A stretch of DNA of 64,000 nucleotides, taken from assembly GCA_041658225.1 (NCBI GenBank), contig JBBAAN010000003.1:18969-82968 (forward strand). Reading direction: 5' to 3'. Made by a program: the position numbers and the translations under genes. This DNA is from Actinomycetota bacterium. GTDB lineage: Bacteria; Actinomycetota; CALGFH01; JBBAAN01. Numbering within the stretch: the first letter of the stretch is position 1; each line of letters begins with the position of its first letter. The notes under the pieces are model-generated. The model did no database searches. It saw only the letters and a list, made by a program, of their open reading frames with translations, and had not been told where the DNA came from. Shown piece after piece: positions 4,419 to 60,927 of this stretch.

Positions 4419-4553
4419 TTCCTTGCCCCTTCTCTTCCGGCCGGCGGCCCGCCCCCGGTCCTGGGGTCTGCCTCTCCGGCCCTGGGCCCCAAAGGGCCCG
4501 ACCGTCCCCGGCTTTGCGCCGGGGCGCCCGCGGCTGCGGGCTATCCCGTTCCC

Positions 4554-8243: not shown

Positions 8244-8440
8244 GCCGAGAGCTCGACGCTCGCGATGATTGGAGGCTCGATGGCCTCAGGGAGGGAAGCG
8301 TCCTCGAAGTAGAGCTCGAGGGCCTCCTTGAGGTTTGCCAGCGCTTCCTCGACGGTGCTGCCCTGGCTGGCCACCTCCACCTCGAGGGACCGGGCGACGT
8401 ACCAGGGCGGTTCGTGGGTGACCACGGCAGTGAATCGCAT
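8240..8440 (-). CDS. hicB: HicB-family antitoxin (UPF0150)
   Basis: MRFTAVVTHEPPWYVARSLEVEVASQGSTVEEALANLKEALELYFED, a typical HicB N-domain. Confidence 0.7.
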   Translation of the reverse strand: MRFTAVVTHEPPWYVARSLEVEVASQGSTVEEALANLKEALELYFEDASLPEAIEPPIIASVELSA

Positions 8441-8508: not shown

Positions 8509-8584
8509 TGGTGGGCGCTACAGGACTCGAACCTGTGACCCCTTCCTTGTAAGGGAAGTGCTCTCGCCACTGAGCCAAGCGCCC
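8509..8584 (-). tRNA. tRNA-Val (anticodon TAC), CCA encoded
   Basis: Reverse complement GGGCGCUUGGCUCAGUGGCGAGAGCACUUCCCUUACAAGGAAGGGGUCACAGGUUCGAGUCCUGUAGCGCCCACCA folds as a cloverleaf. The anticodon loop is CUUACAA. Confidence 0.9.
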
Positions 8585-29135: not shown

Positions 29136-29367
29136 GCCGGCATCGTTCGGCCGCATGATAGACGGTGGCGAACGGCAGGTCGAGGGTACTGAGGGGGAGT
29201 CCCCCACTAGGGCCGGACTTGCCCACGGAACTTGCCCCGTGGCAGGGGGCACTCGATTGAGCAGTGTAGGTTGATGTATGGGTTTGCCCTGTTCGCCAAC
29301 GAGGAACTCGTCGCACCCCCCTTGCTCTGGTCTGAGTCACCCTCCACATGAGCGGCCAAGGCACATA

Positions 29368-30942
29368 ATGAAAGCCCAAGACTTGGACCGGACTGAAGGC
29401 GGCATGCCAAAGGACGCCTCGAAACCTCGCGTAGCCCGCCCACTTCCACCGGTAGAGTGGATCGCTGCGGTGGAGGAGGCACAGGCCTGGCTGGCGGCCA
29501 TCGTGGAGTCCTCTGACGACGCGATCATCGGAGTGACGCCGGACAAGATGGTTCTCACCTGGAACGCGGCAGCCGAACGGCTGTATGGCTACACCGCGCA
29601 GGAGATGATCGGCCGGTCGGTCGCGGTACTGGTGCCGCTCGATCGCCAGGACGAAGTCCCCCGGATCATGGAACTGATGCGACGAGGTGAGCGGACCGAG
29701 CACTTCAGGACAGTGCGCGTCCACAAGGACGGACGGCCTATCGACGTATCCATAACCGTCTCGCCCATCAGAGATCGCTCAGGCGGAGTGGTTGCCTCCT
29801 CGATCACGGCCCGGGACATCACCGAGCGCGTGCGGACGGAGAGGGCGCTGGAGGAAAGCGAGGAGCGATATCGCACGATTGTCGAGGCGGCCAACGAGGG
29901 TGTGTGGATGATCGACACGAACTCGAACACCACCTTCGCAAACACCAAGATGGCCGACATGCTCGGCTACACACCCGAGGAGATGGTCGGCGCTTCACTG
30001 TTTCGGTTCATGGACGATGCGGGGCGAGCCATCGCGGCTGAGGACTTGGAGCGCAGACGCCGGGGGATCGCCGAGCAGCACGAGTTCAAGTTCCTTCGCA
30101 AGGATGGCTCCGTGTTGTGGGCGCTGCTGGGCACCCAACCGCTGACTGACGCGGCGGGCGAGTATGCGGGGGCCCTGGCGATGGTCGCCGACATCACCCA
30201 ACTCAAGCGGGCAGAGGAGGCGCGCCAACAAGCGCTCGAGCGCGAGCGCGAATCCGCGGACCGCCTTCGGGCACTCGATGAGACCAAGAACACGTTCCTT
30301 CGCGCCGTTTCCCACGACCTGCGAACACCCCTCACGGTCATTCTGGGCCTGGCGGAGACCCTGAAGCTGCACGGCGCTCGCCTCTCGCACGAGGACGCGG
30401 TGCGCATCACTGAGAGAATCGTGGCCAACGCCGGGCGCATGGAACGAATGATCAGCAACCTCCTGGACTTCGACCGCCTGTCTCATGGAGAGCTTGCGCC
30501 GGACCGACGCCCGGTCGACATCGGGTCCCTTGTGCGAGAGGCGGTTGCTGGGACTGATTCGGAGGGCCGGCCCATCCAAGTGGAGGTGGAAGAAGAAGCG
30601 CTGGTGACCTTCGTCGATCCCGCCCAGGTCGAACGGATCATCGATAACCTGCTTGGCAACGCGCTCCGGTACTCACCTCCCGAGACGTCCATCCGGATTC
30701 GGGTCTGTCGCCGCGACGGCGGGGTGCTCCTCGCTGTCGAAGACTCCGGTCCCGGCGTTCCGGACCACCTCAAGGAGGCAGTATTCGACCTCTTCCGGCA
30801 CGGCGAGGACGTCCGCCCGAAGGGGGCCGGGATCGGTCTGTCCGTGGTGGCCCGGTTCGCGGAACTCCACGGAGGCCGTGCCTGGGTCGAAGACCGCCCC
30901 GGAGGCGGCGCATCGTTCCGAGTCCTCCTGCCCGAGGCTTGA
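29368..30942 (+). CDS. Cytoplasmic PAS-PAS sensor histidine kinase
   Basis: Two PAS domains (IIGVTPDKMVLTWNAAAERLYGY...; VWMIDTNSNTTFANTKMADMLGY...); H-box AVSHDLRTPLTVI; HATPase N/G boxes. Confidence 0.85.
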   Translation: MKAQDLDRTEGGMPKDASKPRVARPLPPVEWIAAVEEAQAWLAAIVESSDDAIIGVTPDKMVLTWNAAAERLYGYTAQEMIGRSVAVLVPLDRQDEVPRIMELMRRGERTEHFRTVRVHKDGRPIDVSITVSPIRDRSGGVVASSITARDITERVRTERALEESEERYRTIVEAANEGVWMIDTNSNTTFANTKMADMLGYTPEEMVGASLFRFMDDAGRAIAAEDLERRRRGIAEQHEFKFLRKDGSVLWALLGTQPLTDAAGEYAGALAMVADITQLKRAEEARQQALERERESADRLRALDETKNTFLRAVSHDLRTPLTVILGLAETLKLHGARLSHEDAVRITERIVANAGRMERMISNLLDFDRLSHGELAPDRRPVDIGSLVREAVAGTDSEGRPIQVEVEEEALVTFVDPAQVERIIDNLLGNALRYSPPETSIRIRVCRRDGGVLLAVEDSGPGVPDHLKEAVFDLFRHGEDVRPKGAGIGLSVVARFAELHGGRAWVEDRPGGGASFRVLLPEA

Positions 30943-31181
30943 GCCGCGACAGACTCCAGGATCTTCGGGTCCCCCAACTGCGCGGCGGCGTGGGCAGCAA
31001 ATGCGGCGGCGCGCGCCTCGCTCAAGGCTATCTCACCACGCACCCAGGCACGCCCTGCTTCGACAGCCTTCCGAGGTCGGTTGCCTTTCGGGTACTTCTC
31101 CTCGAAACACGGGAGTACGTGCTCGGCGCAGTCTGTGGCCCAGAGCACCAACGACCCGTGGTCCCGCTTGTCCGGCCTCAT
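30943..31181 (-). pseudogene. N-terminal fragment (~79 aa) of an Imm-like helical-repeat protein; the reading frame continues antisense into the PAS-kinase 3' end, so the gene looks truncated or remnant
   Basis: MRPDKRDHGSLVLWATDCAEHVLPCFEEKYPKGNRPRKAVEAGRAWVRGEIALSEARAAAFAAHAAAQ resembles the N-terminus of a conserved actinobacterial family of small alpha-helical proteins. It then diverges where the kinase coding sequence begins. Confidence 0.3.
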
Positions 31182-31337
31182 TCCTCTTCCTCTTTCTTCT
31201 CCATCTGCCCTCTATGGGGTGTCGGCCAACGCCGGGCTGCGGCCCCCTCGCGACCCCCCACTCCGAGAAGGTGTCGGCGACGACGGAGCACCGGCGGCCT
31301 TCAAGGCCGCGACCAACGCTCGAAACGCCGACCAAGT

Positions 31338-31690: not shown

Positions 31691-31719
31691 CTTGATCTGT
31701 ACGCCCATGGTGCGTACAC
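31691..31719 (+). promoter_or_regulatory. Putative tacA promoter (TTGATC, 17-nt spacer, TACACT) overlapping a GTACGC-N7-GCGTAC inverted repeat (candidate antitoxin operator)
   Basis: Seen in the sequence, 30 nt upstream of the tacA ATG and its GGAGG RBS. Confidence 0.4.
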
Positions 31720-31749
31720 TCGGTGCCGGGACGACGTATGGAGGGAATC

Positions 31750-32040
31750 ATGACACCGCGAAGCCCACACGCCCTGAAAGCCGAGCGCCTGCATCTGCGT
31801 GCCACCGAGGATCAGGCAGAAATGATCGAAAGAGCGGCAGAGGCAACCGCCAAGACCGTCAGCGCCTTCGTGCTCGACGCCGCCGGCCTTGAGGCTCAGC
31901 GTGTCCTCGCCGACCGTCGCCGCTTCATGCTGGATCCCGAGCAGTGGAAGCGCTTCGTGGAACTCCTGGACCGTCCGGCGACCCCCAAACCGCGCCTGCA
32001 CCGGCTTGTTCGCCAGCCAGGCGCGCTCGACCAGACGTGA
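31750..32040 (+). CDS. DUF1778 (RHH) antitoxin of a TacA/TacT-type module
   Basis: MTPRSPHALKAERLHLRATEDQAEMIERAAEATAKTVSAFVLDAA...; GGAGG RBS 5 nt upstream. Confidence 0.75.
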   Translation: MTPRSPHALKAERLHLRATEDQAEMIERAAEATAKTVSAFVLDAAGLEAQRVLADRRRFMLDPEQWKRFVELLDRPATPKPRLHRLVRQPGALDQT

Positions 32041-32540
32041 GTTCCGTCTCCGCGGTCGAGCCCCTGAACGACAGCCACAGAACGGACGCCTTCGATTGCG
32101 GCAAACCAGAACTGACCATCTGGCTTCGCCGACACGCCTTGAACAGCCAGCGGGCGGAGACCGCACGTACATATGTCGTGCACCGGGACCTCAGGGTGGT
32201 CGGCTACTACTCGCTTGCCGCCGGAAGCGTCGAGCACGCACGGGCACCGGCGCGTGCGGCCAAGGGCATCGCCCGGCACCCGATCCCAGTGATCCTTCTG
32301 GCCCGCCTGGCGGTGGACACCGCAGAGCAGGGCCGAGGGCTGGGAGCTGCACTGCTCAAGGACGCACTCATCCGAGTGGCCGGCGCGGCGGACGAGATCG
32401 GTGCTCGGGCGCTTTTGGTTCATGCCCAAGATGAGGAAGCGCGGTCCTTCTACGAGCGGTTCGACTTCGACCCCTCCCCCGCAGATCCCTTGCACCTTCT
32501 ACTGCTGATGAAGGACCTCCGGAAGGCAATCGGCCGCTGA
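32037..32540 (+). CDS. GNAT-family acetyltransferase toxin (TacT-like)
   Basis: The GTG start overlaps the antitoxin stop (GTGA). ...PLNDSHRTDAFDCGKPELTIWLRRHAL...RTYVV... is a typical TacT N-terminus. Confidence 0.75.
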   Translation: MSSVSAVEPLNDSHRTDAFDCGKPELTIWLRRHALNSQRAETARTYVVHRDLRVVGYYSLAAGSVEHARAPARAAKGIARHPIPVILLARLAVDTAEQGRGLGAALLKDALIRVAGAADEIGARALLVHAQDEEARSFYERFDFDPSPADPLHLLLLMKDLRKAIGR

Positions 32541-32649
32541 GGCCAAGAGCAGGAAGGGGCGGACGTCGTCCAGGCCGAGACGGCGCACTCCCTTCGTTGT
32601 TCCTGCTCGGTGGCCTGCGTGTTCCAAATTCGTGTTATGGCCTGTTGGG

Positions 32650-32723
32650 TGGGCCCGGCAGGGATCGAACCTGCGACCGGCGGATTATGAGTCCGCTGCT
32701 CTTACCAGCTGAGCTACGGGCCC
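32650..32723 (-). tRNA. tRNA-Met (CAT anticodon; elongator-type, or tRNA-Ile2 if lysidinylated), CCA not fully encoded
   Basis: Reverse complement GGGCCCGUAGCUCAGCUGGUAAGAGCAGCGGACUCAUAAUCCGCCGGUCGCAGGUUCGAUCCCUGCCGGGCCCA gives a perfect cloverleaf. The anticodon stem lacks the 3 G:C pairs of an initiator. Confidence 0.85.
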
Positions 32724-32728
32724 GGCGA
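32683..32728. repeat. Direct repeat copy 1 (46 bp; 5' half of tRNA-Met plus 5 nt upstream)
   Basis: Matches 36802-36847 at 45 of 46 positions. Confidence 0.6.
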
Positions 32729-33030
32729 ACGCATTATGCCTGCCCAGATGGCGTATGTGCCATCCCACAGCGAAGACTCCTGCCCCTCCAAGCTCTCGGC
32801 CGCGTCTGCGCCTTCTCGGGCACCTGCCATCGCACGAAAGGCCATCGAAGAAGCCGGACCTTGACATACCTGGGACAGCGGGCGCGATCTCCGGCCCCTT
32901 CCTCGCGGCGGACTGACTTTCCCTCCCCGCTGCTGCTTCCCTAGTGAAGTAGCCACGACGCCAAACGGCTTCCCGGCGTCAACATGACCGAGGGGGTCTC
33001 GGCGCTGCGCAGGTGGTGTCCAGGGTGCCT

Positions 33031-33813
33031 CTATTGCGTGTTGTCGCCGGACCTCAATTGCCAGGCCGTCACAGCGACGCCCGCCGCGAATGTCAGCACC
33101 AGCACCATCAGGCTGCCGATTGGCAGCCTCTCGACCCTCGGCCCCGCCACACCCGCGAACAGCGGCACGATCGACCAAGGGACCCACTTTCCCCACCCCG
33201 TCGCGCCGAAGACCATGCCCAGCACCAGCATGAAGATGGTGAAGCCCAGCGGTGCCAAGTAGCCTCGGCCGACGGTCGCGACCCAGGCCACGACCGGCAC
33301 GAGCAGCCAGGCACCAAGCGCCGCAAGGAGTATGTCGGCAACCGACGTGACCGCGAGCGACGCGGAGAGGCCCGGAAGTCCCATGAGCAGGCAGACCACG
33401 AAGCCCTCGACGATGAGCCACACGGTCAGGATCCCGAACCACACGAGCACCACCGCAAGTTTCGCGACGGCGAACCAGTGCCGGCCGACCGGCAGCGCAA
33501 GCAGGTTCTTCGCGGTACCTTCAGAGTACTCGCGCCCGAAGACGTAGGCCGCAATCACCGAAACCAGGATCATCCCGCCAATCCCCGTCGTCTGCAGAAG
33601 AAGCTTGAAGAAGCTCGGCCAGTCGGCGGTGAAGCCCGCGAACTGCGTCTTCTGGCCCAACAGCCCGAGCTTCGCGGCGCGCTCAGGCTCTCTCACGATC
33701 CACATGAACAGCGCACCGACCAGCGGGATGATGGAGAGGGCGACCCAGGACAGCCATGTGATCAGACTGCGTCGCAGCTTCAAGAACTCGGTGGCCAGGA
33801 CTCGCGCGAACAT
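33031..33813 (-). CDS. ABC-2 family transporter permease
   Basis: Six hydrophobic helices; the ATG overlaps the ATPase stop (ATGA). Confidence 0.75.
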   Translation of the reverse strand: MFARVLATEFLKLRRSLITWLSWVALSIIPLVGALFMWIVREPERAAKLGLLGQKTQFAGFTADWPSFFKLLLQTTGIGGMILVSVIAAYVFGREYSEGTAKNLLALPVGRHWFAVAKLAVVLVWFGILTVWLIVEGFVVCLLMGLPGLSASLAVTSVADILLAALGAWLLVPVVAWVATVGRGYLAPLGFTIFMLVLGMVFGATGWGKWVPWSIVPLFAGVAGPRVERLPIGSLMVLVLTFAAGVAVTAWQLRSGDNTQ

Positions 33814-34730
33814 CAGGTCCGGCCCCCTGTCTGCCGCATGAAGTGCGCCTCGAGGTCCTCTTCTGTAAGACACAGACGCGTCAGATCGAGGCCATCCTCG
33901 ACGAGAGCCCGTGCGATTGCCGCAGTGCGATCCAGGCCGTCGAGCACGCGAAGACTACCCTCCGCTGTGCGCTCCACCTGCTTCATCCCGAGGCGCTCAG
34001 CAAGCAGCGTCACGGCCCGGTCCGTGTTTGACACGACAATATCCAGGTACGTGCGGGACCGTGCGCGCAGTTCCTCATAGCCAAGATCCTCGATGAGCCG
34101 CCCGGCGTGCACGATACCGATGCGATCGGCAAGATGCGCCACTTCCGCGAGGATGTGGCTCGACAGGAAGACGGTGACGCCGTGCTCGTCGGCTAGACAC
34201 CGCAAGAGATCGCGGACCTCGACGATACCGGCAGGGTCCAGCCCGTTGGCTGGCTCATCCAGCACCAGCACATCGGGACGATGCAGGAGCGCTCGGGCGA
34301 GCGCGAGCCGCTGCTTGTTGCCAAGTGAGAGATGTCCGGCGCGGCGGTCCGCGTACTCCTCGAGACGCATGAGCCCGATGGCCTCGGCGACGGCTTCGCG
34401 CGGCGCGCGGGTCAGGCGGCGCTGGATGTCGAGGTTCTCGCGCACGGTGAGGTTCGGGTAGGCGGTTGCCGTCTCGACCAGAGCGCCGACGCGTCCGAAC
34501 ACGATCTGTTCGCCTCGCACGACGCGGGTGCCCAGCATCGTGACCTCGCCGGCGGACGGCTGGATGAGGCCGAGCAGCATGCGGATGGTCGTCGTCTTGC
34601 CCGCGCCGTTTCGACCCAGGAAGGAGTAGATCTCACCGCGGTGAACGCTCAGATCGATCCCGTCCACGGCGCGCACATCCCCGTAGTGCTTGGCCAGGCC
34701 GTGAGTAGCGATCACGGTCTCAGCCGGCAC
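33813..34730 (-). CDS. ABC transporter ATP-binding protein (ABC-2/drug-export type)
   Basis: Walker A GRNGAGKTT; signature LSLGNKQRLALA; Walker B LVLDEP. Confidence 0.9.
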   Translation of the reverse strand: MPAETVIATHGLAKHYGDVRAVDGIDLSVHRGEIYSFLGRNGAGKTTTIRMLLGLIQPSAGEVTMLGTRVVRGEQIVFGRVGALVETATAYPNLTVRENLDIQRRLTRAPREAVAEAIGLMRLEEYADRRAGHLSLGNKQRLALARALLHRPDVLVLDEPANGLDPAGIVEVRDLLRCLADEHGVTVFLSSHILAEVAHLADRIGIVHAGRLIEDLGYEELRARSRTYLDIVVSNTDRAVTLLAERLGMKQVERTAEGSLRVLDGLDRTAAIARALVEDGLDLTRLCLTEEDLEAHFMRQTGGRT

Positions 34731-35367
34731 GGCGCCTCTCCGCTACCCTCTTGCGGGTGGCCGGGACCGGCGTCGGCTTGGCGTGTCCGAGGGTGCGCAG
34801 CGCGCACTCCATCGCAGCCGCAGCAACGGCACGTTGACCGGCAAGATCGGTGAAACCACGCTCGAAAGCGTGCAGTCCGCCAAGGACAAACCAGGCCGCG
34901 ACGCGCGGGTTGTCGGCGACGAAGACACCTTCCGCCACACCCTGCTTCACGATCTCCTCGACTAGAGGTGCGAGCCGAAGTGAGATCCGCTCGGCCATCT
35001 GGTCGTGAACTTCGCGGTTCTCAGGGCCGTGATAGGCGCCGGCGATTTCCCGTGCCGTCGGGTCCTCGGCAGTGACCAGCAGGGCGTCGCGCAGCACGAG
35101 CAACTTGGCGACGGCCCCCGCGCGGGCCGCGGCCACGGAACGCTCGATCGCACCGACCATTTCATCGCCTATGTGCTCGGCCACGGCGTTGACGATGTCA
35201 GCCTTGCTGTCGAAGTAAAGGTAGAAGGTCCCCTGCGCCACGCCGGCTGCCTTGACGATGTCGCTCACCGCGGCCTTGGCCACCCCCTTCTCCACGAAGA
35301 TCTTCGCGGCTGCGGCAACCAGTTCGCCTCGTCGTGCTTCAGGATCTGTTCGTCGTTTGGTACTCAC
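34720..35367 (-). CDS. TetR-family transcriptional regulator
   Basis: ...AVSDIVKAAGVAQGTFYLYFDSKADI... HTH. Confidence 0.85.
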   Translation of the reverse strand: MSTKRRTDPEARRGELVAAAAKIFVEKGVAKAAVSDIVKAAGVAQGTFYLYFDSKADIVNAVAEHIGDEMVGAIERSVAAARAGAVAKLLVLRDALLVTAEDPTAREIAGAYHGPENREVHDQMAERISLRLAPLVEEIVKQGVAEGVFVADNPRVAAWFVLGGLHAFERGFTDLAGQRAVAAAAMECALRTLGHAKPTPVPATRKRVAERRRAG

Positions 35368-35564
35368 CGGCGCTCCACAAAGAGGGCTGACTGATCGTCA
35401 GTCAGCGTACTCGACCCCCCGGAGCCGGTCAAGAAGTCAGCCATCGACTCCCAGGGAGCGCGGGGGCGCAAAGCCCAGACCCGCTGCTGCCAGGCGAACT
35501 CAGGTACCAGCACGCGTGGGCTGCAGTCTGTAGGCGTCGAGAGGAAGCCGCCCGCTTTCGGCAA

Positions 35565-35616
35565 GTTGTTCGGAACAATTAGATGGCCTTGAACCGAACA
35601 ACTCTCGTGATACTAT
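35565..35616 (+). promoter_or_regulatory. fic promoter (TTGAAC, 16-nt spacer, TACTAT; leaderless, ATG at 35624) overlapped by the inverted repeat GTTGTTCGG-N20-CCGAACAAC
   Basis: Seen in the sequence, in the divergent region between tetR and fic. Confidence 0.4.
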
Positions 35617-35623
35617 CCAAGTC

Positions 35624-36622
35624 ATGAAGAAGCCCGGGCGCCCCCGGCGAGACGAGGTCTACAAGCGGCTGGAGGCAGCCGTAGAAGAGCTTCGTCATCG
35701 GTTCGGGGGGCTCCCATCGCCGACAGAAGCCCCCGACATCTGGAAGGACATCTGGTTCCAGGAGGCTCACAACTCCACCGCGATCGAGGGCAACACCCTC
35801 GTGCTCAAGCAGGTCGCGGCGCTTCTTACAGAGGGACGAGCGGTGGGCAACAAGCAGCTCGGAGAGTATGTGGAGGTCCGCGGATACGCGGATGCTGCCC
35901 AATGGGTGTATGGACAGGCGATTGAACCCGATTCCCGGACCGGCGGCCATCTGCTGACCCTTGCGGAAATCAGGCACGTGCACCACATCGCGCTTCAGCC
36001 AGTCTGGGACGTCGCTCCCCACCCGGATGCCACTGAGCGCGAGAGGCCCGGCAGCTTCCGAGAGCACGACATCCAGCGCTTTCCGGGCGGGATGGCGCCG
36101 CCGCCATGGACCGACGTGCCGGCCTTGATGAAGGACTGGCTGGACGATGTGAGAACGCTGCGGAAGCGCACGGGCCAAGAAGTCGAGCGTGTGGCGGATC
36201 TGCATGCGCGGTTCGAGCGTATCCACCCCTTCCTCGACGGAAACGGAAGGGTGGGAAGGCTCGTCACGAACCTCGTCTTGATTCGAACCGGGTATCCGCC
36301 GGCCATCGTTCTCAAACGAGACCGAATCCGGTACCTGGCCGCGCTCCGCCGCGCAGACTCCGGTGACGCGGGCGCCCTCGGCGAGCTCCTCGCGCGCGCC
36401 ATCATCGACAACCTCTACCGGTTCATTGTGCCTGCGGTGGCCGGCCCAGCGCGGCTGGTTCCACTCGCGGCGCTTGCCGACAAACGAGCCAGCTCAAACG
36501 CGCTGCGTGTGGCCGCGATCCGAGGCCGACTCCGCGCCCAGCGAGGCACCGACGGCCAGTGGAGGAGTTCGCGACGTTGGGTCGACGAGTACTTGAGAAC
36601 GCGCTACAAGCGCGAGCCATAG
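35624..36622 (+). CDS. Fic/Doc-family protein (adenylyltransferase-type; HPFxDGNGR motif)
   Basis: HPFLDGNGRVGRLVTNLVL core motif; 332 aa. Confidence 0.85.
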   Translation: MKKPGRPRRDEVYKRLEAAVEELRHRFGGLPSPTEAPDIWKDIWFQEAHNSTAIEGNTLVLKQVAALLTEGRAVGNKQLGEYVEVRGYADAAQWVYGQAIEPDSRTGGHLLTLAEIRHVHHIALQPVWDVAPHPDATERERPGSFREHDIQRFPGGMAPPPWTDVPALMKDWLDDVRTLRKRTGQEVERVADLHARFERIHPFLDGNGRVGRLVTNLVLIRTGYPPAIVLKRDRIRYLAALRRADSGDAGALGELLARAIIDNLYRFIVPAVAGPARLVPLAALADKRASSNALRVAAIRGRLRAQRGTDGQWRSSRRWVDEYLRTRYKREP

Positions 36623-36801
36623 CCTCCCTGGCCAAGAGCTCCTGCCTTGAGCAGCGGTGGGAAGGCGGACCGTTTGGGGGCCGCGCCAGGGCCGCATGAG
36701 AGCGTCGAACGCTGCAAACCAACGACAGTCCTCCAACCCAGAACGCCAGGCCAGAGGCCCTTTTCGATCGGAATCCCTACCCTCGCGAGTCACCCTGCCC
36801 A

Positions 36802-36847
36802 GATTATGAGTCCGCTGCTCTAACCAGCTGAGCTACGGGCCCGGCGA
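36802..36847 (-). repeat. Degenerate partial tRNA-Met copy (5' half only; direct repeat copy 2). This is a pseudo-tRNA that cannot form a cloverleaf
   Basis: gattatgagtccgctgctctaaccagctgagctacgggcccggcga matches copy 1 with one mismatch. The downstream sequence lacks the anticodon-stem 3' side, the T-arm and the acceptor 3' strand. The ~45 nt upstream are about 70% similar to the region upstream of the intact tRNA. Confidence 0.6.
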
Positions 36848-37069
36848 TTCCACTATGCCTGCTCAGAGGGGGTGTGCGCCATTTCGGAACCCGGTCACCG
36901 TGTCCCCTTCCCATCCGCGTGGGCCGCATTTGGGCCGCGACAACTCGCCGCCCGCTTTTTCGAGGCGACTTGCTCGGAACCCCAGCGCCCCAACGGTTTC
37001 ACGCAACCTGCCTCCCAGCACACCCGCCTCTAGGGTTCCGAGGTCCGATGCGCTTCCGGCGCGAGTCGG

Positions 37070-38251
37070 TCAGCTCCCGGCCAACCGCACGCGCTTGAGG
37101 GCCAAGTGGACCGCGAGCCTCTTGTCGGGCGAATCGAGGGAAGAGCCAAGCAACCCGCGGATCCAGCGGAGCCGGTAGCGGACCGTCTGCTCGTGCAGGT
37201 ACAGACAGCGAGCTGCCTCGGCCACGCTGCCGTTGTTGTCCAGGAGCGCCTCCAGCGTCTCCTCGCACACCCCTCGCTTGGCTGGGGTCAGGTTCCGCAG
37301 GGGACCGAGCACTTCTTCCGCCAACTCCTCGGCAGACGCCGATCCGAGCAGAAAGCGCTCCAGCCATACGTCTTCGAAGCGGACACTCTCTCGCGTCTGC
37401 CGGATCGCCATGGCCAGCGCCTCTCGAGCTTCGCTGTAGCTCGCGCCGACCCCCAAGGGGCCCGCGTGTGGGCGTCCGATGCCGACGAGCGCCCCGGGTA
37501 CGGGGCCTTGAAGATTGTCGGCCACTCCTCGTGCGTCCAACACCACCAGTACACGTCCCTCGGTGGGTGCTACCAGGACCGGCCCGGCTGCCGCGAAGAT
37601 TCTCCTCATTCGCGACACCAGATCAGCGAGGGCGTCTAAGGGGTGGGAATCTTGTTCTCGGGGCTTTGCGAGCAGAGCCTGCCAGGTTCCTGCCATGGGT
37701 ACGTCCAGTATTCGCGAGATCCGGCTTGCTTCCTCCAGGCGCGGCGGGCTGGCTATGAGGGCATCGATCAGTGCGCGCTCCGCATCTCCCAGGCGCTCGC
37801 CGCGCTGTTTCTCCGCCTCCAACATGCTGTGTGTCAGCGCGGTGCTCAGGTCGTTCAGATACTGGATGCCGACCGGTACCGCTTCCAACGGGAACCGGCG
37901 GTCCAGACGTCGGTGGAGCAGAGCGAGGCTGCCGAAACTCCGCCAGAAGACCTCAGCGGCGATCCGGTAGGCCTGAAGCGTTTCCTCGAGGGTGATCCCG
38001 GTCTCCGGGGGCGGGATCCCGATCGTGGCCAGTCGGTCGATCTCCTCGGCACTCGCGCGGCGGGACTCTCGCCATAGCTGCACTAACTTCAGGTAGGTGC
38101 GCGTGACCACTGCCTCGACACCCGTCCAGATCGGCGGACCCGCCCGGCGATAGCCGTCGATGTCTCGCGCTATCTCCTCCGTGGACTCTCGCGCAATCGA
38201 GGCCGCGAGCCCACAGAGCTCATCGAGGAAGTGTGTCCTGGCATCGTTCAT
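37070..38251 (-). CDS. PucR/CdaR-family transcriptional regulator
   Basis: C-terminal HTH ...SVAEAARCLYLHEQTVRYRLRWIRGLLG...; probable start MNDARTHF at 38251. Confidence 0.7.
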   Translation of the reverse strand: MNDARTHFLDELCGLAASIARESTEEIARDIDGYRRAGPPIWTGVEAVVTRTYLKLVQLWRESRRASAEEIDRLATIGIPPPETGITLEETLQAYRIAAEVFWRSFGSLALLHRRLDRRFPLEAVPVGIQYLNDLSTALTHSMLEAEKQRGERLGDAERALIDALIASPPRLEEASRISRILDVPMAGTWQALLAKPREQDSHPLDALADLVSRMRRIFAAAGPVLVAPTEGRVLVVLDARGVADNLQGPVPGALVGIGRPHAGPLGVGASYSEAREALAMAIRQTRESVRFEDVWLERFLLGSASAEELAEEVLGPLRNLTPAKRGVCEETLEALLDNNGSVAEAARCLYLHEQTVRYRLRWIRGLLGSSLDSPDKRLAVHLALKRVRLAGS

Positions 38252-38435
38252 CGTGTCTCTATAGTACCGTGGCCGGACTAAACGCGAATGCAACGCCGAG
38301 CTGGTTTCAACCTTGTAGCTTTCCCACAATCCCGGATCTATGAATTGCTAGCAGGGCGACAGAGGGCCGGCAGGCGGTGTCGGCGAATCTAACCAGGGAT
38401 GGCCGCGGAGGCGTCCTCTTGAAGGGAGAAACGCG

Positions 38436-40241
38436 ATGCGCGCACGAATGGCCGCCTGGCTCGGGGGTCCAGAGGTGCGAGGGAAAGGGCAGGCTGCGAG
38501 GCGAGTCCGTGTGAGCCAGCACAAGAGTCGACGAGGCGTTCCTCGCATCCCGCTCGTGCTCATGGCGGTTGCCGTCGCCTCGACGCTGGCCGTGTCAGCC
38601 GGCGCCGACTCGGGCGGGCCGCCGCCGGACCCCGCACCCGGTAGCACCGAATGGCAAGCGCGAGACACGCAGAACATGCTCGACGCGACAGGCCGTCTGC
38701 AAGATCAGTACACCAATCCGGCGTTCCACAAGGAGAACGCCTCCAACATCCCGGGGGCCTACGGTGAGAACCTCAGCCGCCAGCTTGCCGATCCCACTCG
38801 CCCGACCGTTTCGCTCGGGCAGTCGCTCCCGGGCGCCAGAACCGCGGATCCGTTCAGGATCGACTGGCAGGAGCAGGGTCGCGGGATCCGCTACGACTTC
38901 ACGTTCCTCAACCGCTACGGCGCGAGACTTGCGGGGATCTTGTGGGCGCCGAACCCGGACGCCCCGAACCCCCTCACCGGCAAGCCGATGCATGCGCCCT
39001 ATCCCGCAGTGGTTATCACGGATGGATCGATCCAGGCGTACCAGGAACTGTACTTCTGGGCGGCTCAAGGTCTCGCGGAGGCCGGCTATCTGGTGATGAC
39101 GTTCGACCCACAAGGCCAGGGCGAGTCCGAGGTCTTCGGGCACGACTCGAAGGGCAACATCTGGTGCGACGGCCTCTCGTCCGAGACGCCCCCTCAGGCG
39201 CCGCCCTCCGGCGCCGAGCAGAACCCCTCGTGTCCCGGGTTCCCGTTCCAGCAGACGGCGAACTTCGTATATGGAACGGAAGATGCTCTGGGCTTCTTCT
39301 TCTCGACACGTAGCGCACCGTACCACTGGTACCGTCCTGACACGGGCACGCTTGCCTACAACCCCTGGGCGGCCCTGATCGACCGTGAGCACGTTGGGAT
39401 CGCCGGTCACTCGCTGGGCGCCGGTGCGGTTTCGATCATTCAGGCCTACGACAGGCGTGTCCAGGCCGTCGTTGCGTGGGACAACTTGTCGACCGGGGAG
39501 CCTGCCTCCGATGGCGGCGGGGGCGCCCCCCCCAGCCTTGCCCCATGGAGCGTGACGTCACGCGTGCCGGCGCTGGGTATTACCGCCGACTATGGGTTCA
39601 ACGTGCAGCAGACCTCCTCGCAGCCAGCGCCCAAGGACGGCGGATTCCAGAAGTGGAAGAAGGCCGGCATCGACACGATGGAAGTCTCGCTGGTTCACTC
39701 GACCCATCTCGACTTCAGCTACATACCGTTCATCTTGCCGGCGTCCAAGGACGGAGAGCGCGTCGCCTTCCACTACACCCTCGCCTGGTTCGACCGGTAT
39801 CTCAAAGGGGTGACTGACCCGACTCAGCGTGCCGACGCCACGCGCCGGCTGACCGCGGGAGTCTTCGACGCGAGCGCCGACACCAGCGCTATCGGCGCCG
39901 GAGCCTGGGATGTGGCGACCAACAGCAACGTGCCCTACAAGATCGCGGGTGACCCCGTCTGGGAGCATCTGTCCTTCTACCAGCCAAGCGAGTACTGGCT
40001 GGACAAAGGCAAACTGGCCTGCACGGACATGCGTCGGGACACCTCATGTGCCGCGAGAGCGTCAAAGGCCCAGGGTTCCACCAGCGTTCTCGGCGCCAGG
40101 TCACGGGCGATGGTCGGGGTCCTGCCCGCCACCGGCCCCCGCCTGCCAGCCGGCCTGCCCCTCGGACTCCTTGCGCTCGGCCTCGCGGCGATTCTCAGGC
40201 GGTTCCTCGTGGGGCCGAAAGCCGTGGGGCTCCACCAGTAG
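38436..40241 (+). CDS. Secreted alpha/beta-hydrolase (esterase/lipase-like) with C-terminal LPATG sortase signal
   Basis: N-terminal signal/TM; GHSLGAG nucleophile elbow. C-terminus ends LPATGPRLPAGLPLGLLALGLAAILRRFL. Confidence 0.75.
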   Translation: MRARMAAWLGGPEVRGKGQAARRVRVSQHKSRRGVPRIPLVLMAVAVASTLAVSAGADSGGPPPDPAPGSTEWQARDTQNMLDATGRLQDQYTNPAFHKENASNIPGAYGENLSRQLADPTRPTVSLGQSLPGARTADPFRIDWQEQGRGIRYDFTFLNRYGARLAGILWAPNPDAPNPLTGKPMHAPYPAVVITDGSIQAYQELYFWAAQGLAEAGYLVMTFDPQGQGESEVFGHDSKGNIWCDGLSSETPPQAPPSGAEQNPSCPGFPFQQTANFVYGTEDALGFFFSTRSAPYHWYRPDTGTLAYNPWAALIDREHVGIAGHSLGAGAVSIIQAYDRRVQAVVAWDNLSTGEPASDGGGGAPPSLAPWSVTSRVPALGITADYGFNVQQTSSQPAPKDGGFQKWKKAGIDTMEVSLVHSTHLDFSYIPFILPASKDGERVAFHYTLAWFDRYLKGVTDPTQRADATRRLTAGVFDASADTSAIGAGAWDVATNSNVPYKIAGDPVWEHLSFYQPSEYWLDKGKLACTDMRRDTSCAARASKAQGSTSVLGARSRAMVGVLPATGPRLPAGLPLGLLALGLAAILRRFLVGPKAVGLHQ

Positions 40242-40287
40242 AGCTGAGGGACAGCTCAGACTCGCATGGGGACATAGAAACCCGAAG

Positions 40288-40308
40288 CCACCACTGAGCT
40301 ACGGGCCC
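40288..40308 (-). repeat. Third, shorter tRNA 5'-end fragment (GGGCCCGUAGCUCAGUGGUGG), with upstream sequence homologous to that of the other two copies
   Basis: The first 15 nt are identical to the tRNA-Met 5' end and the rest cannot fold. Upstream, cactatcgctcgtgag resembles cactatgcctgctcag of copy 2 and cattatgcctgcccag of copy 1. Confidence 0.35.
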
Positions 40309-40588
40309 GCAGGGCGCACTATCGCTCGTGAGCCAGCTTCTCTGCTATGCCACTCCCTCCGCGGCCCCACCCCGCACGGCCGCGCTGTGGCGACGGAAGC
40401 CCCCCTTTGGGTTCTCCCCTCGATTCTTGCTGGCATCAGAAGGCGGAGATAGCATGCGTTCGTCGTTCGTCGAGGCAAGGCTCGGATCCCGCCTGGCCTG
40501 AAACCGACCGGCAGTGATCAGCAGCGACACGGGAAGCGGCTTCATATGCCGACCTCCCGATCCGCATTGACCATGGAGTCCGAACAAC

Positions 40589-41353
40589 GTGAACCCGCCC
40601 GGGCCATCCGCCGGAACGCGCCCCAAGGTCATCGTGGTGATGCCCGCATACAACGCCGCCAAGACGCTTCAGCGCACTCACGCAGAAATCCCGCCGGACG
40701 TGGTGGACGAGGTAATCCTCGTTGACGACGGCAGCAGCGACGAGACCGCGGAAGTCGCACGGAAGCTGCGGTTGCACGTGATTCGCCACCCCCACAACGT
40801 GGGCTACGGAGGCAACCAGCGTACGTGCTACATGGAGGCGCTTCGCCGCGGGGCGGACGTGGTGGTGATGCTTCACCCCGACGGGCAGTACGACCCTTCG
40901 GTCCTTGGGGATCTCGTAGCTCCCATCGCGGACGGGCAGGCCGACTTCGTGATCGGCTCTCGGATGAAGATCAAGGGGGGCGCTCGTCAGGGCGGCATGC
41001 CCCGGTACAAGTTCCTGGCCAACAAGTTCCTCACTTTCGTGGAGAACTTGGTTCTGGGCACCAGACTCTCCGAGTTCCACAGTGGCTACCGGGCTTTCAG
41101 TCGCCGTCTGCTCGAGACGGTGCCTTTCCTTCGCAACTCCAACGGCTTCGTGTTCGACCAGCAGATAGTCGCCCAGGCGGTGGCGTTCGGCTTCCGCATT
41201 CACGAGGTGCCGATCCGGACCCGCTACTTCCCTGAGGCTTCCTCAGCGAGCTTCGGCCAGAGCATGGTCTACGGGCTGGGGACTATCTGGACGATGTGGC
41301 GCTATCTGCTGCACCGGCTACGGCTCTGGCGCTCACCCCTGTTCTCGCCCTGA
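40589..41353 (+). CDS. GT2 glycosyltransferase, polyprenol-phosphate mannose/glucose synthase-like (DPM1/Ppm1-type)
   Basis: VIVVMPAYNAAKTL...VILVDDGSSDETAEV...DGQ motifs; GTG start in the track. Confidence 0.85.
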   Translation: MNPPGPSAGTRPKVIVVMPAYNAAKTLQRTHAEIPPDVVDEVILVDDGSSDETAEVARKLRLHVIRHPHNVGYGGNQRTCYMEALRRGADVVVMLHPDGQYDPSVLGDLVAPIADGQADFVIGSRMKIKGGARQGGMPRYKFLANKFLTFVENLVLGTRLSEFHSGYRAFSRRLLETVPFLRNSNGFVFDQQIVAQAVAFGFRIHEVPIRTRYFPEASSASFGQSMVYGLGTIWTMWRYLLHRLRLWRSPLFSP

Positions 41354-56908: not shown

Positions 56909-57730
56909 TCAGTCCCCACCCCGAGGCTCGGCTTCGATGACGATTACGCGCCCGAGCCGGCGCAGCGGTCCGCGACGGACCAGTCTGGAGGCGAGCCGGC
57001 CCTTCCAGCCCCGCGACCAGGCAACCGTGGCCCTGCGGCGTATCACGAGCGAAGGCTCGACCAGGCCTTCGAACTCCCGCCACCCGTATTCCCTCAAGTG
57101 GCTCGACGCGGCGAAGTATGCCGACGTGGGCCGCCGCCGGCCGCGCACCCAATCCCGGGCTCGCCAGCACAGAACCTGCAGGTTGTGCCGGTTGGGAGTG
57201 GCGACCACGACATGACCCCCGGCGGCTACCACTCTTGCGAGTTCCCGCACGCCCACTCGATCGTCGGGCAGGTGCTCGACGGTGTCGTCACACACGGCCG
57301 CGTCGAAAGCACCGGAACGAAACGGAAGTGCCTCCAGATCGCCGACGACGCCGCGAAGGGAAACCCCAGCGCGACCTGCGAACGCCCGGGCCAGCCGGAC
57401 GCTGCCGAGTGAGATGTCGAGTGCCACCATGGTGCACCCGGCCACCCGACCGAGTGCCAGGGACACGGCCGGGTTCGGGCCACAGCCTGCGTCCAGGATC
57501 AGCCCCCTCGCCTCGCTCAGCAGGTCGACCACGACCGGAAGGGTCTCCGGGAAAGAGAGCAGAGGCGGCGCCTCCGAGTCGCCCAGCGAGGACTCCAGCG
57601 ATCCGCCCAGTTCCACATACAGGGCCTTTATCGCGGCAGAGTCCCCAGTCGGCAGCACGCGGTCGACGTGAGCGCGGTGCTGGGTCAGGATGTCCTCCAC
57701 GCCCAACCGAGCGTCATCCCGGTCGGCTCC
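56909..57730 (-). CDS. Class I SAM-dependent methyltransferase
   Basis: Motif I ILDAGCGPN; ...VVCDDTVEHLPD...; probable start MGSEHP at 57730. The longer track ORF overlaps the plus-strand MTase remnant. Confidence 0.75.
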   Translation of the reverse strand, partial: GADRDDARLGVEDILTQHRAHVDRVLPTGDSAAIKALYVELGGSLESSLGDSEAPPLLSFPETLPVVVDLLSEARGLILDAGCGPNPAVSLALGRVAGCTMVALDISLGSVRLARAFAGRAGVSLRGVVGDLEALPFRSGAFDAAVCDDTVEHLPDDRVGVRELARVVAAGGHVVVATPNRHNLQVLCWRARDWVRGRRRPTSAYFAASSHLREYGWREFEGLVEPSLVIRRRATVAWSRGWKGRLASRLVRRGPLRRLGRVIVIEAEPRGGD

Positions 57731-57961
57731 TGACGGGTGCTCGCTCCCCATCCTGCCCCTTCCACGGGTACTCACGCGGATCCAGTGGGCCGCCAGCGGC
57801 GCCCTTGGTCCGCCCATGTTCCAGGTTCCAGGCGGATCCTCGAGAGACAAGATCCGGGTCGGCAGCCATTGTAGGGCGCGTAGACTACTCCCCTGTAGTG
57901 CCGGCGAACCGGACGACCGGTGTGAGGCAGGAGGGCTGCCACGCCTCCCAGTGAGGATCCC

Positions 57962-58662
57962 ATGCGCGCGTATTGGGACGAGCGCGCGCGGGTCAACGCC
58001 GTCTGGTACGTGGACACGAGCCTCGATTTCGACCACCCGGACCTGGAACGGTTCTTCGAGACCGGCCGGCGCATCGTCTCCGAGGCGCTGGACCACGCCC
58101 CAATTGCTCCGCCGGGGTCCTCGCTTGCCGTCGAGATCGGATCGGGCCTGGGTCGGGTGTGCCTCGCGCTGACCGAGCGGTTCAGCCGGGTCATTGGGGT
58201 GGACGTGTGACCCGAGATGGTGCGCCGCGCGCGCGCGAGTTCGCGCCGAATCCACGGATATCCTTCGAGGTGGGCGACGGAGCCAGCCTCGCGATGATCC
58301 CCGACGCCTCCGCCGACCTCGTGCTCTCGTTCACCGTGTTCCAGCACATCCCACACGTGTGGGTGACAGAGCGCTACATCGCCGAGGCTGGGCGGGTCCT
58401 GCGACCCGGCGGCATCCTCGTGTTCCAGTGGAACAACTCGCCGGGCGCGGTTCGCTGGGCCTTGCGGCGCGAAGTACTCTCGCTTCTAAGGCGAGCGGGG
58501 TTGGGGTTGGAGCGTTTCGACCGTCACGCCCCTGCGTTCCTCGGCAGCCGCGTGCCGCTGAGCCGGATACGGCGCTCCCTTGAAGGCGCCGGCCTCGCGC
58601 TTCGGGGCACGAGAGGGCTCGACACCCTGTTTGCCTGGGCATGGGCGGAGAGGGTCTCGTGA
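57962..58662 (+). pseudogene. Class I SAM-dependent methyltransferase disrupted between motif I and the rest: an in-frame TGA at 58208 plus a frame change within or near a (GC)5 run at 58226-58236
   Basis: The N-terminal frame MRAYWDE...VEIGSGLGRVCLALTERFSRVIGVDV stops at TGA, then reads PEMVRRARA. The downstream frame reads ...REFAPNPRISFEVGDGASLAMIPDASADLVLSFTVFQHIP.... The expected joined peptide GVDVSPEMVRRAREFAPNPRISF needs TGA to be sense and 2 nt removed from the (GC)n run. Alternatively one base is missing before the TGA. Confidence 0.55.
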
Positions 58663-59645
58663 TCACCGCCCCACGCGTATCGGTCATCGTGCCCGTCCGC
58701 AACCGGCGAGATCTCCTCGGGGCGCTCCTCGAGGCGCTTGCGCGCCAGACGCTGTCGGGCTTCGAGGTCGTCGTCGTGGACGATGGCTCCAACGACGGCT
58801 CGGCCGAAGAGGCGAACGCCTGGGCGGCGCGCGGCCTGACGCTGCGTGTCCTTAGAACCCAGGGCGTCGGCGCGGTAGGCGCGCGCCGACTCGGTGTGGA
58901 GGCCTCACGCGGCGACGTGCTGGCTTTCACCGACAGCGACTGCGTGCCGGAGCCGCGGTGGCTGGCCGAGGGGCTCGCCGCTATCGAGGCCGGGGTGGAC
59001 GTGGTCGAGGGCGCGACCCATCCCGTGCGCGAGATGCGTGCGTTCGAACACGCGGTCCGGGCGGGAGACGACGGCCTCTACAACACCTGCAACGTCTTCT
59101 ATCGCCGGGAAGCCTACGAGGCCGCGGGCGGCTTCGACGGGAACACCGGACGGCGCATGGGTTTCCGGCCGGGATCATTCGGGCGCGGTCTCGGCTTCGG
59201 GGAAGACACCCTGCTCGGCTGGCGCGTGCGCCGCGCCGGCCGAGCCGCATTCGCGCCGCTCGCCATTGTGCGCCACCAGGTCCTGCGATCCTCCCCGCGC
59301 GAGACGATCAACCGAACCTGGATGTGCGGCGGCTTCCCCGCGCTGGTCCGAGAGGTACCCGAACTTCGGGGAGCCCTTCTCAAACACCGGCTTTTCCTCG
59401 GGCGCAGGCGCGTGCCGCTGTACGTGCTGGTGGCCGCGCTGCTGCTGCGCCGGCGCAACGCCGCGCTGATCGCGGCGGCATGGTGGTTTGCTGCTCGCGC
59501 CCGCGATGTATCGCGTACGAACGGTGCCGGGCACGGGATCAAGCGAGGGCGGCTGCTCGATATTCCGGTCGAGCTCGCCCGCGATGTCGTGTCCGCGGCA
59601 GCCCTGCTGGCCGGCAGCGCCAAGACCCGGACACCCGTGCTGTGA
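58641..59645 (+). CDS. GT2 glycosyltransferase
   Basis: VSVIVPVRNRRDLL...VVVVDDGSNDGS...AFTDSDCVPEPRWL. Confidence 0.8.
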   Translation: MGGEGLVITAPRVSVIVPVRNRRDLLGALLEALARQTLSGFEVVVVDDGSNDGSAEEANAWAARGLTLRVLRTQGVGAVGARRLGVEASRGDVLAFTDSDCVPEPRWLAEGLAAIEAGVDVVEGATHPVREMRAFEHAVRAGDDGLYNTCNVFYRREAYEAAGGFDGNTGRRMGFRPGSFGRGLGFGEDTLLGWRVRRAGRAAFAPLAIVRHQVLRSSPRETINRTWMCGGFPALVREVPELRGALLKHRLFLGRRRVPLYVLVAALLLRRRNAALIAAAWWFAARARDVSRTNGAGHGIKRGRLLDIPVELARDVVSAAALLAGSAKTRTPVL

Positions 59646-59727
59646 TGTGCCGCCGCCGGTTCGCCCGCAGGTTCCTTCGCGGGGGCCATCGCGGCCCGGG
59701 TAGCGCGTCTCGCCCCGAGGCCCGACC

Positions 59728-60894: not shown

Positions 60895-60927
60895 TCTGGC
60901 CGAACCTGATCCACGTGCGGCCGGGAG

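Follow-up and report, generated by a model that had tools for sequence, protein, structure and literature searches.

How did a tRNA gene in an uncultured Actinomycetota lineage come to have two truncated copies of its own 5' half upstream of it, and did mobile elements bring in the genes that lie between them? We analysed this locus within a 64-kb stretch of DNA (64,000 nucleotides; the window), for which the original prediction had proposed tandem, integrase-less islets inserted at the tRNA. Serial site-specific integration is probably the best explanation of the locus, because one fragment ends at nearly the same boundary as other truncated copies, integrase-linked precedents exist and the mode of integration is known in the Islander collection. 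Other readings were weighed where the relevant evidence arises.

The tRNA(CAT) gene, its truncated copies and their flanks

The intact gene, with anticodon CAT, lies at 32648-32723 on the minus strand. It was called tRNA-Met(cat) by ARAGORN and reached an Rfam tRNA score of 73.3 bits at 32650-32723, though this tRNA(CAT), called Met, could be an Ile2 species. A repeat search returned an 81-nt direct repeat with 88% identity (32683-32763 versus 36802-36882), and blastn-short aligned 32683-32728 with 36802-36847 (45/46 identical, E=7e-19 within the window). This second copy, situated 4.1 kb upstream of the intact tRNA, contains fragment 2 (36802-36842, minus strand), which covers tRNA positions 1 to ~40 and consists of the acceptor strand, D arm, anticodon 5' strand and loop plus 2 nt. 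Its D loop reads GGTTAGAGC. With A in the D loop, the fragment matches without exception the consensus 5' half, which is widespread and also present in unrelated contigs. Fragment 2 was not called as a tRNA by ARAGORN and scored 22 bits in Rfam, below the threshold. Fragment 3 (40289-40309, minus strand) is the most decayed copy and, in the model favored below, the oldest. Positions 1-16 are exact at 40294-40309 (aligned with 32709-32724, 16/16 identical, E=0.002 within the window), with a possible 1-nt-gapped extension to around position 21, and the fragment ends in the D-loop region, which is not a canonical crossover position. All three copies are co-oriented on the minus strand, and both fragments, located upstream of the gene, begin with tRNA position 1 and are hence terminal, not internal. 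Repeat structure, orientation and boundary position can thus be read directly from the DNA, and the predicted arrangement of an intact tRNA with two upstream 5' copies was borne out.

The upstream flanks were likewise found to be homologous, as had been claimed. On the minus strand, the flank of copy 1 (32724-32763) is identical to that of copy 2 (36843-36882) at 31/40 positions, and the flank of copy 3 (40310-40353) matches those of copies 1 and 2 at 25/44 and 20/44 positions, respectively, compared with an expected identity of ~28%. Of the promoter that each element was expected to supply, only -10-like hexamers at a fixed distance could be seen; a consensus promoter scan called none of the three flanks. 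CATAAT is found at 32733-32738 in the copy 1 flank, CATAGT in the copy 2 flank and GATAGT in the copy 3 flank at the same offset as CATAGT, while CACTAT occurs at one offset in the flanks of both copies 2 and 3. Between copies 1 and 2, 1/41 positions of the tRNA part and 9/40 of the flank are changed (Fisher p=0.007), indicating that the flanks diverged while both tRNA parts were constrained. Judged by these substitutions, the pattern would fit independently evolved attP arms and not a recent local duplication decaying neutrally.

Could the repeats simply reflect chance similarity or an assembly artefact? Copy 3 is just a 16-mer with a weakly similar flank, and a 5' half common to many soil-metagenome organisms could in principle seed chimeric joins. 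We nevertheless consider this very improbable given the E-value of copy 2 and the fact that copy 3, besides its own E-value, is placed and oriented as expected, with a -10-like hexamer at a matching offset. Further, the repeats span 46-81 nt, less than the k-mer length of the final assembly step as suggested by the contig name (k141), and Logan contigs from a different assembler, which may share source reads, cross the tRNA and both fragments with 100% identity and span all junctions identically. The junctions are therefore not obviously an assembly artefact.

Integrase-linked copies of the same 5' half

Other copies of the 5' half were searched for using a 41-nt pattern with one D-loop position left free. 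Apart from this position, the 41-nt 5' half was unchanged across compositionally very different contigs. At least seven truncated copies were present elsewhere among the matches listed; six of these seven end 3 or 4 nt past the anticodon loop (loop +3/+4; L085, L165, L266, L089, L115 and L148), and L107 ends near position 65. A second, fragment-specific metagenome pattern recovered mostly intact tRNAs (~73 of the 80 matches listed), because the usual tRNA carries an A at the distinguishing position (G27-U43 pair), together with at least four loop-boundary fragments and at least one odd truncation. Scans of viral contigs with the tRNA 3' half of the window and with the copy-1/2 flank consensus gave no matches in either case.

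Integrases that use this same tRNA 5' half exist. At L085 and L165, whose integrases are 51% identical to each other, the TAG stop codon of the integrase gene is formed by tRNA positions 8-10 and followed by the 5' half only, an arrangement that, from its layout, looks like an attP. The nearest cultured-phage integrases are ~33% identical to that of L085. When the integrases of L216 and L219 are included, the stop codon lies inside the tRNA or a tRNA-like 5' end in three of four cases. In a 43.9-kb provirus (IMGVR_UViG_3300014501_000028), an intact tRNA-CAT at one end is preceded by a tyrosine integrase gene at a distance of 15 nt, and a co-oriented 5' fragment with a native-type flank lies at the other end. 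The end of fragment 2, at loop +2, is located 1-2 nt from the ends of the integrase-linked fragments.

This boundary bears on whether the locus could instead have arisen by decay of tandem paralogs. Here, two or three ancestral tRNA(CAT) genes, each with its own promoter, would have been present, and unrelated indels would have removed the 3' parts of two copies and brought in the intervening genes. Homology of all three upstream flanks is what such paralogs with promoters would show, and the non-canonical end of fragment 3 as well as the missing integrase and unremarkable composition described below are also compatible with decay. However, random truncation would reach the 1-2 nt interval around the integrase-linked ends at only ~5/76 positions, and each of the two losses would need to have taken away the 3' part and left the 5' part, with the same orientation both times. 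In addition, none of the 87 other 5'-half loci listed contained a second match to the 41-nt pattern within the sequence stretch examined per locus. Overall, we regard paralog decay as unlikely, if worth keeping in mind.

The enclosed segments and their surroundings

Islet A (32764-36801, ~4.1 kb) encodes an ABC-2 permease (33031-33813), an ABC ATPase (33813-34730) and a TetR regulator (34720-35367), all on the minus strand and assigned via Pfam, followed by a plus-strand Fic gene (35624-36622) recognized by its HPFLDGNGR motif and having TACTAT 7 nt 5' of its ATG. Islet B (36883-40288, ~3.4 kb) contains a PucR/CdaR-type regulator (37070-38251, minus strand; Pfam) and a 601-aa secreted alpha/beta hydrolase (38436-40241, plus strand; Pfam) carrying an LPATG sorting signal at its C terminus. 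Members of the hydrolase family are widespread; the nearest homologue is 59% identical and found in an unrelated, tRNA-free context. On the 3' side of the tRNA, 107 nt from its end, a TacA1 antitoxin (31750-32040; Pfam PF08681) and a GNAT toxin (32037-32540; Pfam GNAT) are encoded on the plus strand. Pfam and motif analysis thus agreed with the predicted gene content of both islets and of the TacA/GNAT pair. The first gene past the outermost fragment, a GT2 glycosyltransferase (40589-41353, plus strand; Pfam), forms the right boundary of the array. The P' sides of islets A and B share no homology, and comparison of islet DNA with plasmids yielded generic ABC-ATPase similarity only. No 3' fragments of tRNA-Met or tRNA-Val were found that would bracket the adjacent TA pairs.

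Further left, a histidine-kinase module was observed that recurs with 88-91% nucleotide identity on another contig, beside a large serine recombinase. The sole non-identical match of the histidine kinase (83%) is located in a different mosaic context without a tRNA.

The window contains no integrase, as the original prediction had stated: in Pfam analysis, the major ORFs of the 64 kb all lacked integrase, recombinase and transposase domains, and no trace of an integrase pseudogene emerged when 14 tyrosine integrases and the L212 serine recombinase served as tblastn queries. The sole tyrosine recombinase seen on the contig (106 kb visible) lies outside the window, behind dprA, and is XerC-like. 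Neither islet contains mobility genes. A compositional shift across 32729-40287, which had been put forward as a check, did not appear: islets and surroundings show no difference in GC, GC skew, GC3 (p=0.18), codon usage (p=0.57) or tetranucleotides (|z|<1.5).

No genus-level relative was present in the databases searched. With the next-nearest homologues of flank and cargo genes sharing 59-83% identity and residing in unrelated contexts, neither an empty site nor a differently occupied one turned up there in any relative. GT2 homologues (60-72% identical) occur across phyla without a nearby tRNA; the next-best match in a protein search was 72% identical, and a genome scan gave homologues of at most 71% identity, with no tRNA at the 30 Actinomycetota loci scanned, shared neighbors at 0 of 80 loci and hence no synteny. 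Exact-protein matches were confined to the source contig and 100%-identical Logan contigs and consequently provide neither structural variants nor independent evidence.

The native-like composition and codon usage of the islets may also point to a different history in which elements inserted, left the fragments behind and were then almost wholly lost. The genes now located between the fragments would in that case be native or have arrived by other routes and would not be cargo of these elements. The lack of mobility genes in both islets and the ordinary chromosomal context of the closest hydrolase homologue are in line with this. On the other hand, loss of an element that spares both att copies, followed by refilling, requires more events than deletion of an integrase module, while the occurrence of Fic, TetR-ABC and TA genes, which are typical island cargo, is a weak argument in the same direction. 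We consider att scars of this kind an improbable explanation. With regard to the proposed tandem islets, the fragment structure and the boundary near integrase-linked ends stand, whereas the status of the enclosed 4.1- and 3.4-kb segments as present or past mobile cargo is unproven.

Probable serial integration and its relation to known systems

In the favored model, two successive integrations into one tRNA(CAT) gene would have been carried out by tyrosine-integrase elements. The attP of each element would comprise the tRNA 5' half (positions 1 to ~40) and an upstream promoter-like arm, with the anticodon loop as the site of crossover. Each element would bring a new 5' half and arm that join the native 3' half, so that the tRNA stays intact, and the older 5' half and its arm would end up beyond the element. 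Islet B, the first to integrate, would have displaced the native 5' half, giving fragment 3, and islet A, the second, would have displaced the copy of islet B, giving fragment 2. The intact tRNA would then be attR-like, combining the 5' half of the last element with the native 3' half, which starts with CCGCCGGTCGCAGG, and fragment 2 would be attL-like. Accordingly labeled, the flanks of copies 1, 2 and 3 would represent the P arm of islet A, the P arm of islet B and the native promoter region, respectively. Later deletion of the integrase and any excision or transfer genes would leave two small, att-flanked, integrase-less islets of accessory genes, similar to CIMEs; these could probably no longer move unless a related integrase were supplied in trans. 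Arrival of these islets by integration, their order and the loss of the integrase are what we infer from the present arrangement. The configuration supports integration in that it agrees with the Islander configuration and orientation filters, and decay is greatest in the outermost fragment, as would follow from serial insertion. The hotspot-like neighborhood of the tRNA, with TacAT on its 3' side and the histidine-kinase module further left, also argues for integration. Against it weigh the missing integrase, the unremarkable composition of the islets, the lack of an empty or otherwise occupied site among relatives in the databases searched, the tRNA-free context of the nearest hydrolase homologue, the D-loop end of fragment 3 and the unrelated P' sides of the two islets. 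The P arms also count against it: they resemble promoters and not the 3' end of an integrase gene, which would place the elements in another family than the integrase-linked precedents.

The same promoter-like arms allow for a more speculative function, which we consider a long shot. Arm and 5' half might together form a self-sufficient attachment cassette for a family of tiny, integrase-less and still-mobile islets. An integrase acting at the 5' side of tRNA-CAT, whose gene would lie at another place in the genome or on an incoming phage, may capture these islets and move them in trans. Alternatively, the retained promoters may fire antisense RNAs led by the tRNA 5' half into the convergent Fic and hydrolase genes.

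If serial integration is correct, an uncultured Actinomycetota lineage has an integration hotspot at this tRNA(CAT) gene, and the drug-efflux-type ABC system, Fic protein, PucR regulator and cell-wall-anchored hydrolase are acquired accessory genes. The locus would then represent a further example of the uncommon mode in which the 5' half and promoter of a tRNA gene are replaced. Current views would be unchanged, as the mode, tandem arrays and integrase-less remnants are already documented. A more useful by-product of our analysis is the set of integrases targeting the 41-nt tRNA 5' half (L085, L165, L216 and L219).

Islander lists 5' fragments in 159 of 3919 tDNA islands (PMC4383910), and the mode is therefore a known one as well as a minority one, as originally stated. 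The collection further includes 2083 islands with anticodon-centred sites and 125 tandem arrays, and its rules call for a cognate, co-oriented fragment, with 5' fragments upstream and terminal, and an integrase per island (PMC4383910). The window shares with these islands the intact tDNA, the co-oriented terminal 5' fragments upstream and the tandem array. With respect to the boundary, for which anticodon loop and T loop are the known crossover sublocations, fragment 2 ends at loop +2 of the anticodon loop and fragment 3 in the D-loop region. Unlike Islander islands, both islets are without an integrase and very small (4.1 and 3.4 kb), and one fragment measures only ~16-21 nt.

In Prochlorococcus, tycheposon islands form by repeat integration at one tRNA, with older elements being pushed inward (bioRxiv 10.1101/2020.12.28.424599). 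Partial tRNAs and degenerate elements are left behind there as in the window (bioRxiv 10.1101/2020.12.28.424599), but the host phylum and integrase families are different, and tycheposons keep recognisable integrases or fragments of them while the window has none. The tRNA-CAT proviruses share the layout of intact tRNA, element, 5' fragment and native flank, and IMGVR_UViG_3300014501_000028, L085, L165 and L216 use the same tRNA 5' half, with boundaries at +3/+4 compared with +2 here. In these proviruses the integrase gene runs up to or into the 5' end of the tRNA, whereas the tRNA-proximal arm in the window is promoter-like, non-coding and without integrase homology.

CIMEs (cis-mobilizable elements), as defined in ICEberg 2.0, consist of accessory DNA between att-like repeats, have lost integration and transfer genes and occur in tandem with a related ICE or IME, whose integrase excises or mobilises them (PMC6323972). 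The islets are similarly flanked by att-like repeats, arranged in tandem at one site and devoid of integration and transfer genes; for islet A, the core shared by tRNA and fragment 2 is 45/46 identical and includes the whole anticodon loop, whereas in fragment 3, the outer site of islet B, damage is evident and the anticodon loop is gone. Unlike the CIMEs of that definition, the islets reside in an organism without a known helper ICE or IME or related integrase. CIMEs have been described in Streptococcus at the fda locus and are not known from the 5' side of a tRNA gene. Among the systems compared, the best match for the locus is a tandem array of CIME-type remnants that are att-flanked and without an integrase, and the locus is probably an ordinary decayed case of a known, uncommon integration mode.

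The tRNA gene and its partial copies

The window is part of a 106-kb metagenome contig (ENA ERZ27247322, k141_249857), and identical proteins at NCBI carry the label 'MAG: Actinomycetota bacterium'. The sole ARAGORN call with anticodon CAT lies at 32648-32723 on the minus strand and reaches 73.3 bits in Rfam. Positions 32683-32763 recur in direct orientation at 36802-36882, an 81-nt repeat with 88% identity. Of its first 46 nt, 45 are identical (E=7e-19 in a search within the window); this part takes in 5 nt of flank besides tRNA positions 1 to about 40. Read in tRNA sense, this second copy (fragment 2) ends in ...GCGGA CTCATAA TC, followed by tggg, and retains the anticodon-stem 5' strand, the entire 7-nt loop and 2 further nt. 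Fragment 3 (40294-40309) exactly matches tRNA positions 1-16 (E=0.002) and ends in the D loop, which would require a later deletion under serial integration. The original prediction of an intact tRNA with two upstream 5' copies and homologous flanks is thus structurally sound. Chance or artefact is a very improbable source of this pattern. Logan contigs, produced with a different assembler, cover all three copies with 100% identity, which argues against mis-assembly and is not independent biological evidence.

The ARAGORN label 'Met' cannot tell Ile2 (lysidine) from elongator Met. In the acceptor stem, GGGCCCG, C4 and C5 are present, and this tRNA(CAT) in its common form has a G27-U43 pair, presumably as in E. 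coli ileX, so that the gene may encode tRNA-Ile2. An 88-nt 'tRNA-Pro(agg)' called by ARAGORN at 4499-4586 overlaps the 3' end of ffh (SRP54, 4554-5885) and is probably a false positive.

Upstream flanks and gene content

Judged by identity, the upstream flanks of all three copies are homologous, with 31/40 matches between copies 1 and 2, 25/44 between 3 and 1 and 20/44 between 3 and 2 (expected ca. 28%). CACTAT is found at the same offset in copies 2 and 3. Between copies 1 and 2, mismatches number 1/41 in the tRNA part and 9/40 in the flank (Fisher p=0.007), so the flanks changed at a time when both tRNA parts remained under constraint. Such a difference is not what neutral decay of a recent local duplication would produce. 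The tRNA-proximal arms are non-coding and weakly promoter-like (CATAAT, CATAGT and GATAGT at a fixed distance), which suggests that any elements involved would lie outside the L085/L219 integrase family described below. A consensus promoter scan of the three flanks called none. The anticodon loop region includes the letters CATAAT, which also form the -10-like hexamer in the copy-1 flank. Further, an 11-mer (CCTGCCCAGAT) is shared by the copy-1 flank (32739-32749) and the junction left of fragment 2 (36794-36804), possibly by chance (E=2.3).

The predicted gene content was recovered. Islet A, between the tRNA and fragment 2, encodes an ABC-2 permease, an ABC ATPase, TetR and Fic, while islet B, between fragments 2 and 3, encodes a PucR/CdaR-type regulator and a 601-aa alpha/beta hydrolase with a terminal LPATG sorting signal. 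A TacA1/GNAT toxin pair is encoded 107 nt from the tRNA 3' end. As also predicted, no integrase was found: the major ORFs of the 64-kb window all lack integrase, recombinase and transposase domains, and 14 tyrosine integrases and a serine recombinase used as tblastn queries returned no remnant there. Only one tyrosine recombinase is present on the reachable contig, a XerC-like protein of 329 aa encoded after dprA, ca. 4-5 kb past the left end of the window. Relative to their surroundings, the islets showed neither a compositional shift nor the codon-usage shift proposed earlier as a check (tetranucleotide |z|<1.5, GC3 p=0.18, codon usage p=0.57). The fragments could be genuine att scars with the enclosed genes not being cargo of the elements, a reading we consider rather improbable. 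The top tetranucleotide outlier of the window (57000-61500, z up to 4.1) lies in a methyltransferase/glycosyltransferase stretch within the polysaccharide gene cluster.

A PAS histidine kinase/Imm5-like module (29357-31212; small Imm5-like ORF at about 30940-31181, minus strand) recurs with 88-91% nucleotide identity on L212, another contig of the same sample (window 29201-31212, L212 9954-12986). On L212 an intact HTH_17/PIN (VapBC-like) pair and a large serine recombinase of 490 aa come after it; the window retains only 22 aa of PIN (29280-29345), upstream of the kinase. The 3'-side neighbourhood of the tRNA is therefore mosaic as well and, with a TA pair 3' and the kinase module further left, looks like a hotspot. 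HicA toxin (8022-8243) and its DUF7387 partner (8240-8440), directly 3' of tRNA-Val (8509-8584, minus strand), mirror this TacAT arrangement. A search for 3' tRNA fragments bracketing either pair found none. The next-nearest homologues were 83% identical for the kinase (mosaic context), 72% for the glycosyltransferase GT2, the first gene past fragment 3 (40589-41353, plus strand), and 59% for the hydrolase (unrelated context). None of 80 GT2 loci from species-representative genomes shared neighbours with the window, and none of the 30 Actinomycetota loci scanned among them had a tRNA-Met.

Integrases at the 5' side of tRNA(CAT)

With one D-loop position left free, the 41-nt 5' half proved widespread in low-GC and high-GC contigs. 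Our comparison set comprised 87 other listed loci with this half or its one-base variant. The metagenome pattern was aimed at broken anticodon stems, and since the position it selected on is A in most intact tRNAs, longer fragments were not selected against. Seven loci carried truncated copies, fragments shorter than the pattern escaping detection. Six stop at loop +3 or +4 (L085, L165, L266, L089, L115 and L148) and one, L107, near position 65. In L107 (Ga0207657_10002568, ~4860-4960), an inverted copy of a conserved upstream flank motif of intact genes in that lineage stands in place of the 3' acceptor strand, starting near position 65. The three copies might alternatively be decayed tandem tRNA(CAT) paralogs. 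This is unlikely, and it is weakened by the lack of a second pattern match in the stretch examined at any of the 87 loci.

A tyrosine integrase adjoins three of the truncated fragments. On viral contig L085, the TAG stop of a 391-aa integrase (4344-5550; Pfam Phage_integrase, 4e-30) coincides with tRNA positions 8-10, and only a 5' half follows, which looks like an attP. Locus L165 (734-1885) has the same layout; its integrase is 51% identical and both proteins end in ...GP*. In L216 (3001-4160) the stop falls within a tRNA-like 5' segment. These stops suggest that attP overlaps the gene end. A profile built from the L085 and L165 integrases found seven relatives in viral contigs, at 43-58% identity. 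By sequence, the L085, L165, L216 and L219 (3001-4257, with L266 4264-4304) integrases are one family (43-58% identity) predicted to target the tRNA-CAT 5' side; the nearest cultured-phage integrases are ~33% identical. Both att ends are visible in one 43.9-kb provirus, IMGVR_UViG_3300014501_000028. Here, one of the seven relatives stops 15 nt short of an intact tRNA-CAT, and at a second site on this contig a co-oriented 5' fragment without a tRNA ends at loop +3, followed by a flank resembling native upstream flanks of intact genes. The resulting order (intact tRNA, integrase, element, 5' fragment, native flank) is that of the window, except for the integrase. GCGGGA(N3-4)TGCGGGA repeats lie directly 3' of the fragment in integrase-linked L085, L165 and L266, and G-rich direct repeats are also found in the element-side arm of the window (36765-36801, GCAGGGTGACTCGCGAGGGTAGGGA). 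They could represent arm sites of an integrase or mere GC-rich background.

Probable serial integration and known systems

Taken together, we favor, with moderate confidence, the islets being remnants of elements that would have integrated serially into the tRNA(CAT) gene. Configuration and orientation of the fragments are correct, the fragment 2 boundary is 1-2 nt from integrase-linked boundaries, the outermost fragment is the most decayed, and 1/41 versus 9/40 mismatches fit two independently evolved attP arms.

Targeting of the 5' half, described in the original prediction as the less common mode, is indeed uncommon and already known. Islander lists a 5' tDNA fragment in 159 of 3919 islands, an anticodon-centred attP in 2083 and tandem arrays in 125 (PMC4383910). 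The locus works like such a tandem tDNA-island array of the 5'-fragment, anticodon-centred type, although neither islet has the integrase that Islander requires of each island. The nearest named concept is the CIME, att-flanked DNA stripped of integration and transfer genes (PMC6323972). Islands built by tycheposons likewise have older, degenerate elements pushed inward and partial tRNAs scattered (bioRxiv 10.1101/2020.12.28.424599), the inward pushing being as proposed for the window locus.
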